DNA from: Eledone cirrhosa | Lineage: Eukaryota | Length of the DNA stretch: 64,000 nt | Assembly (NCBI GenBank): GCA_964016885.1 | Contig: OZ024751.1 | Location: forward strand, 22,196,001 to 22,260,000 | Direction of reading: 5' to 3' | Shown here: positions 4,401 to 28,889 of the stretch, piece by piece | Layout of the letters: every line of letters begins with the position of its first letter | How positions within the stretch are numbered: the stretch's first letter is position 1 | Program-made: the position numbers and the translations under genes | Notes under the pieces: generated by a model | Told to the model about the DNA's origin: nothing | Database searches by the model: none | The model's input: the letters and a program-made list of their open reading frames with translations, nothing else

Positions 4401-5855
4401 GTGTGTGTAAACGTATAGACACACACAAACACACATGTATGTGTATATCGTGTGTGTATATATATATACACACACACAAACACACATGTAGGTATATATA
4501 TGTGTGTGTAGACACACATGTAGGTATATATATGTGTGTGTAAACGTATAGACACACACAAACACACATGTATGTGTATATCGTGTGTGTATATATATAT
4601 ACACACACACAAACACACATGTAGGTATATATATGTGTGTGTAGACACACATGTAGGTATATATATGTGTGTGTAAACGTATAGACACACACAAACACAC
4701 ATGTATGTGTATATCGTGTGTGTATATATATATACACACACACAAACACACATGTAGGTATATATATGTGTGTGTAGACACACATGTAGGTATATATATG
4801 TGTGTGTAAACGTATAGACACACACAAACACACATGTATGTGTATATCGTGTGTGTATATATATATACACACACACAAACACACATGTAGGTATATATAT
4901 GTGTGTGTAGACACACATGTAGGTATATATATGTGTGTGTAAACGTATAGACACACACAAACACACATGTATGTGTATATCGTGTGTGTATATATATATA
5001 CACACACACAAACACACATGTAGGTATATATATGTGTGTGTAGACACACATGTAGGTATATATATATGTGTGTAGACACACATGTAGGTATATATATGTG
5101 TGTGTAAACGTATAGACACACACAAACACACATGTATGTGTATATCGTGTGTGTATATATATACACACACACAAACACACATGTAGGTATATATATGTGT
5201 GTGTAGACACACATGTAGGTATATATATGTGTGTGTAGACACACATGTAGGTATATATATGTGTGTGTAAACGTATAGACACACACAAACACACATGTAT
5301 GTGTATATCGTGTGTGTATATATACACACACACACAAACACACATGTAGGTATATATATATGTGTGTAGACACACATGTAGGTATATATATGTGTGTGTA
5401 GACACACATGTAGGTATATATATGTGTGTGTAAACGTATAGACACACACAAACACACATGTATGTATATATCGTGTGTGTATATATATACACACACACAA
5501 ACACAGATGTAGGTATATATATGTGTGTGTAGACACACATGTAGGTATATATATATGTGTGTAGACACACATGTAGATATATATATGTGTGTGTAAACGT
5601 ATAGACACACACAAACACACATGTATGTGTATATCGTGTGTGTATATAATACACACACACAAATACACATGTAGGTATATATATGTGTGTGTAGACACAC
5701 ATGTAGGTATATATATGTGTGTGTAGACACACACAAACACACATGTATGTGTATATCGTGTGTGTATATAATACACACACACAAACACACATGTAGGTAT
5801 ATATATGTGTGTGTAGACGCACATGTAGGTATATATATGTGTGTGTAAACGCACA
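1470..5855. repeat. Compound satellite built from a 32-bp unit and a ~100-bp unit, with 296-bp higher-order repeats
   Basis: The unit gacacacatgtaggtatatatatgtgtgtgta (32 bp) alternates with a longer aacgtatagacacacacaaac... unit. The variant 'aaacacagatg' recurs with its G at 2290, 2586, 2882 and 3178 (period 296). Confidence 0.95.
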
Positions 5856-9541: not shown

Positions 9542-9543
<2 letters not shown>

Positions 9544-9744
9544 AACCAGTAAGACCCCGACAGCTGAGCTCAAGCCGTTTCGACGGCTAATTCTGGACTG
9601 AATTAGCCGTCCAGAATTAGCTGTCGAAACGGCTTGAGCTCAGCTGTCGGGGTCTTACTGGTTCCTATTACCCACTCTACTACCTCAAGTATTGAGTACT
9701 TTGGTGCGTTATGGTCCACCTGGTTCCTTACCACATTTCCTTCG

Positions 9745-9746
<2 letters not shown>
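9542..9746 (+). mobile_element. PLE-type mini-element family A: 5' inverted arm, HHR 3' half and tail, in (TA)n
   Basis: GAAA-cggct-tgagctc-agctg-TC-ggggtc (stem III plus GUC). The ~55-nt 5' arm is the reverse complement. The tail ...gtactttggtgcgttatggtccacctggttccttaccacatttccttcgtt is shared with other copies. Confidence 0.8.
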
Positions 9747-9952: not shown

Positions 9953-9991
<39 letters not shown>

Positions 9992-23227: not shown

Positions 23228-23410
23228 TGTATTGATAAGAATGATGGAGTTTCGTTTACTAGTTCACGAAACTTCATCGTTCTTATTAATATATATACTT
23301 TGCTTGTGCACAGAGTGTTTGTTTTGGTTCACCACAAGTAATTCACTGAATCACCCACATTATATATATATATATATATATAGGAACGAGTAGGACCCCG
23401 ACGGCTGAGC
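23228..23410 (+). mobile_element. Fold-back mini-element with tail
   Basis: tattgataagaatgatggagtttcgt / acgaaacttcatcgttcttattaata, followed by a unique tail and then (TA)n. Confidence 0.55.
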
Positions 23411-23711
23411 TCAAGCCGTTTCGACGGCTAATTCTGAGTCCAGAATTAGCCGTCGAAACGGCTTGAGCTCAGCCGTCGGGGTCCTACTCGTTCCTATTAC
23501 CCACTCTACTACCCTAAGTATTGAGTACTTTGGTGCGTTATGGTCCATCTGGTTGCTTACCACATTTCCTTCGTTATATATATATATATAACGAAGGAAA
23601 TGTGGTAAGCAACCAGATGGACCATAACGCACCAAAGTATTATATATATATATATAACGAAAGAAATGTGGTAAGCAACCAGATGGACCATAACGCACCA
23701 AAGTACTCAAT
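23383..23711 (+). mobile_element. Family A copy plus two inverted duplicates of its 3' tail
   Basis: 23383-23575 is a full copy. 23590-23639 and 23656-23711 are reverse complements of its tail, separated by TA runs. Confidence 0.85.
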
Positions 23712-23855
23712 ATATATATATATGATTCCAGTTCCTAAGAGCAATAACAACACTACCAGGAGCTGGACATATCGATGGATTGACGGAGTAAAACACACTT
23801 CAACAACATCTGTACCTGTCCTTCCCACACCTATATATATATATGAAAATATTTA

Positions 23856-24043
23856 GGGCCCCGACGGCTGAGCTCCGGCCGTTTCGACAGCTAGATCCGA
23901 ACAGTTCGGATCTAGCTGTCGAAACGACCGGAGCTCAGCCGTCGGGGTCCTGACTCCTTTCATATTACCCATTCTACTAGCCTAAGTATCGAGTACTCTG
24001 GTGCGTTATGGTCCACCTGGTATCTTACCACACTTTCTTTGTT
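23856..24043 (+). mobile_element. Family A variant subfamily, fold-back
   Basis: ccccgacggctgagctccggccgtttcgacagctagatccgaac-a-gttcggatctagctgtcgaaacgaccggagctcagccgtcgggg, with the shared tail. Confidence 0.8.
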
Positions 24044-24350: not shown

Positions 24351-24615
24351 GTATATATATATATGTATATATATATTTGTATATATATGTATATATATAT
24401 ATATATATGTGTATATATATATATGTATATATATGTATATATATATATATATATATATGTATATACAGTTTTTTCCGTTGTGTTGTAATATAAATATTAC
24501 ACACAGTAGATTATCAGCTCACGTAGAGTTTGCTCGACGGTTCCAGTTGTAGTTCCAAAAGTAATCCGGAGAAAAATAGAAAGATTTGAATGGATACAGT
24601 TTAGTTGAAAGGAAT

Positions 24616-24732
24616 TTATTGACACGTGTTTCTATAACAGTTACATAACCTAAAACAGCTATCTACAAACTTTTAGTTATGCAGACATTCAATATTTCAA
24701 TGTTATTGTTTACTGTCATTTCATCAGAATAA
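24616..24732 (-). ncRNA. Type-I hammerhead ribozyme in the PLE 3' region
   Basis: ttatt-CTGATGA-(a)atgacagt...actgttat(a)-GAAA-cacgtg-TC-aataa: stem I 5 bp, long stem II, palindromic stem III. Confidence 0.75.
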
Positions 24733-25323
24733 TATTACTGAGGACCTATTTAGTTTTTATAGAGAATATTAGGAGGAAGGGGTGAAGTTGTTAGAAGAAT
24801 AGTTGAAGGAGTGGTTTTTCGATAGCAGTGAGAATTCTTGGTGGCAGTGATTAATTAGATTCCCATCTGTTGTTTTGACATTTTTTATAGAATATATTAT
24901 TGGTTATTTTTCTAAATCTATAGAAGGATTAGAGATAGTAAAGATATGCGTGGTTGGTTTTGTGTTTGCACTTAACATTCAGACTTAAATTTTTCTTTCA
25001 AGTGTACGTATTCTTTCACCCACGCATTCACACACAAATATATTTGCACACCTCTACAAAATACATATACTCACAATTCACATATTCATACTTACATATA
25101 TATACACATGCATACACATATATATACACACATGTATTCATGTACATACATACGCGCTCATGTGTATACATTTTCATACTCAACTTATCTTTATATATAC
25201 ACACGTATAGACACACACATATATACATACATACTCTAGTCATGTGTACACACATACACATACATACACATCCATATACACATACATACATACACATATA
25301 TATATATACATATATACATATAC

Positions 25324-25354
<31 letters not shown>

Positions 25355-25377
25355 CACATACATATATACACACATAT

Positions 25378-25414
<37 letters not shown>

Positions 25415-25683
25415 AGCACTTTAATACATGAATACACTTACATCTAACTATACACATCAAACATATATATATATTTACTTATTTATATACATTTTCACAT
25501 ATATATACATACTTATGGACGTTTTTAGACACATTCATTATCGCATATTTGTACCTATTCTCATCAGCATATCTTTTCATTATTAGTATGGTAATTTAAG
25601 GTTATTAATATATGTTGAGAAGAGATTGTTTTTATATTTTTCTAACTAGATTAAGGTTTATATAGTTGGGGGATGTCCCTCTT

Positions 25684-27004
25684 TTATGTAATATTCTGCT
25701 TGTAGTGGGAAAAAAGGGTTTTAGTTCTGTGACGGCAGAATAATGTTCGTTCAATTCTGTTATTCAGCAGTTTCTTCTTGTGTGTGATTATGTAATAAAT
25801 CTCAAGATTGCACAATTTGCAGAAATTTTGGCTCCTGGAAAAGCTCTGGGTTTTAGCTAATTTTTCCCATTTTAGGGTAAACTTTTGATTGCTATCCCTG
25901 AGCGTCCAAGCTTTTTCTGCTAAAGTTGTTACATTTCTTTGGCTCTGGTGTTTTATTGAGTAAGAATGCCTATACAATCGAGATTTAAACGATGTTGCCG
26001 TTGATCCCACGTAATACCACTCGTTGCCTCCGGATTTAATGGTACACTTATAAATAATATTTTTTTCCAGGCAGTTATTGCCGAGGGGGCAGTTGTCAGG
26101 ATAGGTGCAGTTACAGTTGTGTACGTTGGGTTTTCTCTGGAGTAGTATTGCGGACGAACTTAGGTGTGGTTTATTTATGTTCTGTAGTGTATTGTCTACT
26201 GTTTTTTTGGGGTTCTTTGTACTTAAGTTCTTAGTGTTTTCGTTTAACCTTCTAGTATTGATCTTTTTTATGTGTTGTTCAAGGTTTAACGCTGTAGAGT
26301 ATGACAGTCTTATAGTGGTAGGGTTTAGGATTTTGTGGTATTTGTGTGATGTGGGAAAATGTCTTTTAATTATTTTAAAGAAGAGTACTGGTAAATTTGT
26401 ACTAATGGAGCTATTGTATTCGGGGTTATACCATAAGTACTCTTTGCATCGCTTTCTATTAGTTTTGTTTGTTGGTTTACTGGTGTGCATACTATGGTAG
26501 TAAGTGTGGTTTGGTGTTGTGTTATTATATCTACCTATGTGGGATTTATTTTGGGTGTTTTGATTGTTCCCATCTATGTACTCTATTTTGTTGAGGTAGC
26601 CTGCTTTACTAAGGGCGTTATCGTAGTACTCGGCGTGTTCCTTAAATACTTGTATGTTAGAAGATAGACCCGAGATTCTAAGGGAAATATTTTTAGGGAT
26701 AGATTTAATTATAGAGATGGGGTGGTTAGACCCAACATTTACGTATTTGAGATTTTCATTCAATTTATGAAACGGTTTAATCAAACCAGAGTTTAAATTG
26801 AGTGTGACATCCAGGAAGTTAACTACTTTAAGGTTGTATTCATATGTTATAGTTAGTCCTATTTCGAGTAGTAGTTTTCTTATATCTTTGCGTAGTTTTT
26901 CTAGTTTTTGGTTATTAAGGTTTTTAGCTAGGAGGAGAACATCGTCGCGGTATATTCCGCCGTGGAGATTGCTGAATTTTTCCTGGAGTCTAAAGGCGAT
27001 AAAA
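25684..27004 (-). CDS. PLE polyprotein C-terminal ~440 aa: RT palm/thumb, Cys linker, GIY-YIG endonuclease (truncated)
   Basis: IYRDD catalytic motif, VNFLDVTL, SNHP, CNCxxxxxCPLxxxC linker, IIYKC...YYVGSTATSFKSRLYRH, and CKLC...CRH. The first ~107 aa of the listed ORF are antisense read-through from the inverted arm. Confidence 0.92.
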
Positions 27005-27745
27005 CCCGAATACAATAGCTCCATTAGTACAAATTTACCAGTACTCTTCTTTAAAATAATTAAAAGACATTTTCCCACATCACACAAATACCACAAAATC
27101 CTAAACCCTACCACTATAAGACTGTCATACTCTACAGCGTTAAACCTTGAACAACACATAAAAAAGATCAATACTAGAAGGTTAAACGAAAACACTAAGA
27201 ACTTAAGTACAAAGAACCCCAAAAAAACAGTAGACAATACACTACAGAACATAAATAAACCACACCTAAGTTCGTCCGCAATACTACTCCAGAGAAAACC
27301 CAACGTACACAACTGTAACTGCACCTATCCTGACAACTGCCCCCTCGGCAATAACTGCCTGGAAAAAAATATTATTTATAAGTGTACCATTAAATCCGGA
27401 GGCAACGAGTGGTATTACGTGGGATCAACGGCAACATCGTTTAAATCTCGATTGTATAGGCATTCTTACTCAATAAAACACCAGAGCCAAAGAAATGTAA
27501 CAACTTTAGCAGAAAAAGCTTGGACGCTCAGGGATAGCAATCAAAAGTTTACCCTAAAATGGGAAAAATTAGCTAAAACCCAGAGCTTTTCCAGGAGCCA
27601 AAATTTCTGCAAATTGTGCAATCTTGAGATTTATTACATAATCACACACAAGAAGAAACTGCTGAATAACAGAATTGAACGAACATTATTCTGCCGTCAC
27701 AGAACTAAAACCCTTTTTTCCCACTACAAGCAGAATATTACATAA
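27005..27745 (+). pseudogene. Inverted duplicate of the PLE thumb/GIY-YIG coding segment
   Basis: The peptide from PEYNSSISTNL to HYKQNIT is identical to the minus-strand ORF. Confidence 0.9.
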
Positions 27746-28014
27746 AAGAGGGACATCCCCCAACTATATAAACCTTAATCTAGTTAGAAAAATATAAAAA
27801 CAATCTCTTCTCAACATATATTAATAACCTTAAATTACCATACTAATAATGAAAAGATATGCTGATGAGAATAGGTACAAATATGCGATAATGAATGTGT
27901 CTAAAAACGTCCATAAGTATGTATATATATGTGAAAATGTATATAAATAAGTAAATATATATATATGTTTGATGTGTATAGTTAGATGTAAGTGTATTCA
28001 TGTATTAAAGTGCT

Positions 28015-28047
<33 letters not shown>

Positions 28048-28070
28048 ATATGTGTGTATATATGTATGTG

Positions 28071-28101
<31 letters not shown>

Positions 28102-28692
28102 GTATATGTATATATGTATATATATATATGTGTATGTATGTATGTGTATATGGATGTGTATGTATGTGTATGTGTGTACACATGACTAGAGTATGTATGT
28201 ATATATGTGTGTGTCTATACGTGTGTATATATAAAGATAAGTTGAGTATGAAAATGTATACACATGAGCGCGTATGTATGTACATGAATACATGTGTGTA
28301 TATATATGTGTATGCATGTGTATATATATGTAAGTATGAATATGTGAATTGTGAGTATATGTATTTTGTAGAGGTGTGCAAATATATTTGTGTGTGAATG
28401 CGTGGGTGAAAGAATACGTACACTTGAAAGAAAAATTTAAGTCTGAATGTTAAGTGCAAACACAAAACCAACCACGCATATCTTTACTATCTCTAATCCT
28501 TCTATAGATTTAGAAAAATAACCAATAATATATTCTATAAAAAATGTCAAAACAACAGATGGGAATCTAATTAATCACTGCCACCAAGAATTCTCACTGC
28601 TATCGAAAAACCACTCCTTCAACTATTCTTCTAACAACTTCACCCCTTCCTCCTAATATTCTCTATAAAAACTAAATAGGTCCTCAGTAATA

Positions 28693-28809
28693 TTATTCTG
28701 ATGAAATGACAGTAAACAATAACATTGAAATATTGAATGTCTGCATAACTAAAAGTTTGTAGATAGCTGTTTTAGGTTATGTAACTGTTATAGAAACACG
28801 TGTCAATAA
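28693..28809 (+). ncRNA. Mirror copy of the PLE hammerhead
   Basis: Same motif on the plus strand; GUC cleavage triplet at 28802-28804. Confidence 0.75.
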
Positions 28810-28889
28810 ATTCCTTTCAACTAAACTGTATCCATTCAAATCTTTCTATATATATGTATATATATATGTATCATATATCATGATATACT

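Follow-up and report, generated by a model that had tools for sequence, protein, structure and literature searches.

Within a window of 64,000 nucleotides (nt) of the Eledone cirrhosa genome (assembly GCA_964016885.1, contig OZ024751.1, positions 22,196,001 to 22,260,000, forward strand), to which all coordinates below refer, positions 24466 to 28849 hold two 5'-truncated copies of one Penelope-like element (PLE), placed head to head. The motifs of its protein assign the element to the Hydra clade, and one recent retrotransposition event likely laid down both copies. The long copy (24466..27003, minus strand) is truncated just upstream of the reverse transcriptase (RT) motif YRDD and its 3' end lies in a (TA)n tract. 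The short inverted copy (27005..28849, plus strand) begins within the open reading frame (ORF), at the equivalent of position 26424, and stops 110 nt before the 3' end of the long copy, passing straight into (TA)n.

Architecture and coding content of the inverted insert

A reverse-complement alignment of the left arm (26427-24576, minus strand) with the right arm (27002-28849) gave 1847 identical columns out of 1848. The sole mismatch is position 27004, at the junction, and the sole indel is one of 4 nt in a (TA)n tract (25387-25390 of the left arm); with 0 substitutions over 1845 sites, the divergence of the arms is below ~0.16%. The near-identical 1.85-kb arms of the original prediction were thus recovered, and its statement that they differ only in microsatellite length holds for the indel but overlooks the mismatch. 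The element had also been called palindromic, which is right for the inverted arms; the palindrome is nevertheless imperfect, since the arms are separated by a unique spacer of 574 nt (26428..27001, minus strand), present in the long copy only and containing the end of the RT core and the thumb, and since the long copy runs 110 nt (24575-24466) past the end point of the right arm. This 3' tail (24466..24575, minus strand) exists on the left only. Both copies have their 3' ends outward, each entering (TA)n, and the DNA past each (TA)n is dissimilar. The 13-nt stretch of the left (TA)n target flank (24453..24465, plus strand) is repeated in the right one (28850..28862, plus strand); it may be a target-site duplication, the evidence being weak because the repeat sits inside a microsatellite. 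A microsatellite-rich part of the 3' untranslated region (UTR; 27920..28360, plus strand) is mirrored in the left arm and contains the lone arm indel. The inverted repeat is real in the assembly and very likely so in the genome.

On the minus strand a frame of ~439 codons (25684..27003) is open from the junction via YRDD to a stop at 25684, with the N-terminal ~335 amino acids (aa) absent; the part from YRDD to the stop had been described as uninterrupted. This single frame carries the YRDD motif and the thumb, Asn/basic-rich inserts, a CxCX5C linker and, at the C-terminus, a GIY-YIG endonuclease with its IIY...YVG, R, E and N. Together with the hammerhead ribozyme predicted in each arm, it bears out the earlier description of an RT/GIY-YIG Penelope-like element carrying a hammerhead. 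No Pfam family was found for the protein of the element, nor for its homologues P0002 and P0003.

The contigs of four public runs (X1, X2, X4 and X7, with four organism labels, from three studies) were aligned to positions 26428-27900; datasets X12-X19, whose word share is below 0.2, were excluded. In all four runs the element is colinear, 26428 being joined to 27005 on opposite strands, and all four share a loose end at 27003 from which the RT frame extends upstream. One X1 contig contains 1010 more bases past 27003, about the 335 codons which precede that point in full-length homologues. The window copy is without this ~1 kb, most of the RT core, and hence encodes no working RT. Each long piece listed for the four runs has 0-16 differences (98-100% alike), and the family contigs within X4 are 90 to >99% alike. 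The near-identity across runs of four organism labels points to recent activity of the family or to very close hosts; mixed samples or a recent transfer may also lie behind it. The window showed fewer differences from X1 and X2 in the spacer than in the arms, not significantly (p 0.16 and 0.09). Positions 27583, 27619 and 27732 of the window have a letter other than the main one of each of the four runs, and this private letter is found in both arms, from which it follows that the arms come from one template.

Clade and predicted hammerhead

Hydra-clade elements are marked by a C-terminal GIY-YIG, a CxCX5C linker, the lack of CCHH, and a CxxC and a CxH flanking the conserved E and N (Craig et al. 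2021, PMC8557442). The window protein has the CxCX5C linker (CNCTYPDNC at residue 296), CKLC at 394 and CRH at 422 around the conserved E and N, and no CCHH motif in its endonuclease, where a single Cys and no CxxC lie between GIY and YIG. Its RT motif, YRDD, is that of the Hydra rows in the published alignment, compared by eye, whereas Neptune rows show RYIDD/RFIDD (PMC8557442). Both ends of the element are inserted at (TA)n, and a hammerhead with an atypically long domain II was matched by a descriptor near the 3' end of both arms. All 43 homologues with E <= 1e-10 are RT/GIY-YIG proteins or fragments of them, 30-52% identical, and ADKG occurs in none of the 43. The N-terminal RWK/DKT region is truncated in the window; the top full-length homologues (P0002, P0003, P0005, P0006, P0048 and P0049) carry RW-x and DKT/DKS. 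On its linker, endonuclease and RT motifs the clade is Hydra.

The element had been described as Neptune-type. The Neptune clade does share with it an RT followed by a C-terminal GIY-YIG, a Cys-rich linker, microsatellite targets and a hammerhead. However, Neptune elements have CX2-5CxxC, CCHH, RYIDD/RFIDD and DKG, and the window element shows none of those that can be looked for in it, its linker being CxCX5C and its RT motif that of the Hydra rows. With no CX2-5CxxC match and no CCHH, the Neptune assignment was rejected. Naiad and Chlamys were set aside as well, the endonuclease being C-terminal and not N-terminal to the RT.

A quick tree was built from 31 Hydra-like proteins, with no outgroup clades. 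In it the window protein falls within a set of 8 rows with a Shimodaira-Hasegawa-like approximate likelihood ratio test (SH-aLRT) value of 100, and this set includes every one of the four rows with a cephalopod name (Argonauta hians and Octopus sinensis), a placement that makes a cephalopod host likely. The Octopus sinensis protein P0039 (XP_029650703.1), annotated as 'myb-like protein I', is a Hydra-clade Penelope fragment. Hydra-1_Obim of Octopus bimaculoides resembles the window element in its C-terminal GIY-YIG, CxCX5C, lack of CCHH, CxxC/CxH around E/N and YRDD, as well as in its (TA)n targets and its 3' hammerhead with a 4-bp stem III. Unlike it, the window element has Asn/basic-rich inserts, a different hammerhead and a longer, microsatellite-rich 3' UTR of about 1.2 kb, and the thumb regions are identical at 47 of ~96 aa, as counted by eye. 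Since the thumb is only about half identical by this count, the window element is a separate family.

The predicted type I hammerhead (28689..28812, plus strand) is mirrored in the long arm (24613..24736, minus strand, with its core at 24727 and its site at 24621). A descriptor that allows a long domain II matched each arm: stem I has 5+3 bp, CUGAUGA stands at 28698, stem II has 8 bp and closes a domain of 86 nt, GAAA stands at 28793, stem III is a palindrome of 4 bp, and the site is a GUC at 28804. The candidate had already been noticed when this descriptor was composed; it gave 0 matches in 5000 first-order Markov sequences of the 490-nt UTR segment and 0 in 20 window-sized ones. The start of CUGAUGA is at a distance of 151 nt from the right end, and that of the predicted cleavage site from the left end is 155 nt, in agreement with the ~150 nt stated earlier for the hammerhead; the motif that folds, though, uses the GAAA at 28793 and not the nearer one at 28727, which was rejected because it leaves no stem I. 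A scan of the window at Rfam gathering scores gave 0 matches. Stem I is missing from the minimum-energy fold and enforcing it costs 4.3 kcal/mol, and cleavage activity is only predicted. By analogy with hammerheads cleaving as dimers or with the assistance of a protein (PMC4209133, PMC11167929), the palindromic stem III suggests one of these modes of cleavage.

A scan of 80 related metagenome loci with the long-domain-II descriptor gave 18 matches in 16 loci, 17 of which have a domain II of 10-25 nt, the remaining one being a weak match with a domain II of 105 nt. In the Hydra rows compared from the PMC8557442 supplement the loops measure 3-9 nt, against 86 nt in the window element. A hammerhead with so long a domain II widens the known range, and standard descriptors would miss such ribozymes. 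Elsewhere in the window, at 56779-56707 (minus strand) and beside the assembly gap (N, 56821-57020), lies another type I hammerhead, which is complete and whose domain II measures 52 nt.

Fold-backs and formation of the inverted copies

The window contains many smaller inverted repeats, and 14 of these mini fold-backs were examined. In 8 of the 14, one arm lies at most 1 nt from (TA)n and an extension of 78-140 nt stands on the opposite side; 2 are asymmetric with longer extensions, and 4 are off this rule, including A3, whose family obeys it. The large insert had been presented as a large-scale version of the mini fold-backs, and the layout common to these 8 upholds this view. The asymmetric inverted layout is a recurrent biological product in the window. 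In the families named A to E, 8 of 10 minis carry an outward hammerhead 3' half or whole core, the arms are 93-100% alike, and the spacers measure 0-12 nt in 7 of 10.

Family A comprises four fold-backs (9542-9745, 23383-23575, 23855-24040 and 31923-32128) and partial copies near 9990, 13525 and 14030. Its arms of 46-57 nt contain the hammerhead 3' half and have (TA)n on both sides, and the one-sided tail is 80 nt long in three of the four. In each of the four the fold-back point lies 15-30 nt upstream of GAAA, perhaps at ribozyme stem II. The solo copy at ~9990 has no tail, indicating that the inner end was used on its own. At 23526-23712, three tail fragments of family A stand in alternating orientation with short (TA)n between them; this arrangement reads as repeated insertion into the same microsatellite. 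Three other fold-backs (33749-34087, 49878-50160 and 42617-42961) have whole or near-whole outward hammerhead cores in both arms; in the last, domain II is ~46 nt long and stem III resembles that of the main element. Further unrelated minis of the same layout lie at 57422-57538, 48558-48664 and 50555-50640, with tails of 78-90 nt and spacers of 0-7 nt.

Comparison of the minis with the 3' 595 nt of the main element gave no DNA similarity beyond simple AC/TA tracts. Having no sequence in common with it, the minis were probably made by other Penelope-like families. Between the two PLE types compared in the available text of Arkhipova 2013 (PMC3846280), no cross-mobilisation was seen. Mobilisation of the minis by the family of the main element was rejected on the lack of similarity, and the earlier suggestion that an RT/GIY-YIG family of this kind could mobilise them was overstated, the window copy moreover lacking half its RT. 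Among the 80 related loci, 15 have an inverted repeat of at least 40 nt; in L042, L064 and L025 it looks to be the 3' part of the element, copied upstream in inverted orientation. In the Hydra-like element of L042, an inverted copy of the 3' end, 188 nt long and 90% alike, lies directly upstream of the ORF (2512-2694 / 4545-4732). Pairs of hammerheads on opposite strands, 100-700 bp apart, have been described in Schistosoma (PMC4209133).

The inversion junction (27001..27008) bears an 8-nt microhomology, ATAACCCC, between the upstream antisense strand of the element and the beginning of the right arm on the sense strand, as found by hand comparison with the contigs of the other runs. The probability that an octamer of this kind lies by chance so near both break points, within a few bases of each, was roughly estimated by hand at ~0.3%. 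Microhomology at the junction had been noted before from a comparison of the junction with the arm itself; the informative match is the octamer, which came to light only through the upstream sequence of the other runs.

In the formation we favour, an RT/endonuclease from an intact family member would cut both strands of the (TA)n tract, and the left target end would prime complementary DNA (cDNA) at an outer start site on uncleaved RNA, the template being taken as uncleaved because the hammerhead site is passed in both arms. Synthesis would halt after ~2.5 kb, whereupon the stalled cDNA would fold back, pair its 3' octamer with the complement that it carries ~575 nt earlier, and copy itself. 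The copy-back strand would then be captured at the right target end, its own end being set by another start site, which lies 110 nt inward of the first, so that the outer site would give the long copy and the inner site would fix the end of the short one. The joining of each target end to the 3' end of the element would account for the head-to-head orientation, and copy-back would explain why the arms are identical and why the minis have such tiny spacers. For this middle step of cDNA copy-back we would put the case at about even. In vitro, a Poseidon protein cuts both strands and extends them, accepts uncleaved RNA as template and begins at two internal sites, between which the tail lies (PMC11167929), and self-priming has been proposed (PMC3846280).

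Several points weigh against this formation. The octamer was not joined cleanly, the junction being 3 nt too short for that, and A27004 matches neither parent. No contig piece among those listed for X1, X2, X4 and X7 bridges the inversion junction (27003-27005 on one strand); since there are 576 pieces beyond those listed and contigs drop rare forms, this absence neither confirms nor refutes a private insertion. The spacer loop of 574 nt far exceeds the spacers of the minis, and the in vitro data, carried over by analogy, come from another clade with tails of 30-40 nt. Finally, two separately primed cDNAs would yield the same final structure: primed in one event at the outer and inner sites on sibling RNAs, by a dimeric complex, they would have their 3' ends joined via the octamer with no copy-back. 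This course of events matches the extension of both strands and the two start sites seen in vitro (PMC11167929), makes the unequal arm lengths natural and is in keeping with the tail-less solo copy. It nevertheless requires that both RNAs came from one source copy, given the shared private letters, and that both cDNAs stalled at one place to leave the near-zero spacers of 7 in 10 minis, and we consider it possible but rather less probable than copy-back.

A library or assembly artefact, in which a fold-back chimeric read or collapsed repeats made the second arm, would suit the practically identical arms, the absence of the junction from the listed contigs of the four other runs and the scaffolded state of the window, with 200 N at 56821-57020. 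A fold-back read, however, would mirror the tail and the left flank, whereas the right arm stops 110 nt early and is followed by (TA)n and different DNA. Unrelated minis, some with arms only 93% alike, repeat this asymmetry, and inverted copies are found in the related Hydra loci L042, L064 and L025 too. With asymmetric ends, and a layout common to 8 of 14 unrelated minis, an artefact is improbable. We hold equally improbable a single truncated insertion duplicated later in inverted orientation by a template switch of host replication, which would yield identical arms plus microhomology but leaves unexplained both the flush (TA)n end of the second arm, 110 nt short of the first, and the fixed tail of family A, 80 nt in three of four. 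The family is abundant in some runs, judging from the summed contig depth in X4 and X7, which would help two independent insertions to become adjacent by chance; yet there is no target DNA between the copies, the junction lies within the ORF with microhomology, and private letters are common to both arms despite a span of 90 to >99% among the family contigs in X4, so that chance adjacency is the most improbable of all.

Known inverted inserts and surroundings

It is the norm for Penelope-like elements that a 5'-truncated copy lies inverted at the 5' end and that only one end has a tail (PMC8557442, PMC8969392), and an inverted 5'-truncated copy likewise adjoins the 5' end at the window locus. 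In the Hydra-clade element Penelope-13_HM of Hydra magnipapillata the inverted copy is 966 nt long (PMC8557442 supplement); the window arm, at 1.85 kb, is twice as long, and its 110-nt one-sided tail is evident. Pen2a of Adineta and the Poseidon element PAc of Anolis also have a head-to-head inverted copy, a tail at one end and a microhomology or palindrome at the junction (PMC3846280, PMC11167929), but they belong to other clades and their tails measure 30-40 nt, against 110 nt here and 78-140 nt in the minis. The forms described in the available text of a retrozyme preprint (10.64898/2026.07.22.740005) are tandem and not inverted. Our literature search gave no description of the window family or of ~100-nt tails; Arkhipova 2006 and Evgen'ev and Arkhipova 2005 may report longer tails. 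The formation of inverted Penelope-like copies has been named as an open task (PMC8557442), and the present insert keeps both ends, the tail and the junction, all of which bear on it.

Taken alone, the locus is a dead insertion of the ordinary sort, in a layout already known. In L1 twin priming, two target ends are used and inversion occurs via microhomology, the product being inverted without duplication; the window locus, unlike it, has the 3' part twice. What is new here, modestly, is a cephalopod-type Hydra family, an arm of 1.85 kb, a tail of 110 nt against 30-40 nt and an oversized hammerhead domain II. The value of the locus is that it represents an undescribed family by a copy both young and clean, and the recurrent tails of 80-110 nt widen the known range. 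It is a tentative and rather doubtful generalisation that, among cephalopod PLEs, several families unrelated to one another start at two fixed sites separated by 80-110 nt, a distance three times the published tail, and form inverts by copy-back captured at the second site; that this genome has ~10 of these per 64 kb, so that the formation question would be solvable from its assembly alone; and that the Hydra family in addition has a working hammerhead with an 86-nt domain II missed by Rfam.

The product is inert, save for a hairpin that may form if a host transcript crosses the insert. Kilobase hairpins of this sort would be natural editing substrates in cephalopods if they lay in transcribed regions, and the window hairpin may have this role only if the locus is transcribed; no RNA dataset was among those listed as containing the element. 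The ~1.85 kb of double-stranded RNA suggested earlier for an intronic position, as a potential ADAR or siRNA substrate, would likewise be hypothetical, the present data speaking neither for nor against it. A Pfam scan of 96 of the 186 non-simple ORFs of the window recovered only the RT of a long interspersed nuclear element (LINE) and, below cut-off, a lone C2H2 finger; an intron is neither demonstrated nor excluded by this outcome. The former is an RVT_1 match (E 2e-17) at 40322-41011 (minus strand), probably a LINE remnant, followed by an open frame at 39292-40134; the C2H2 zinc finger match, just below the Pfam cut-off, lies at 38422-38652 (plus strand).

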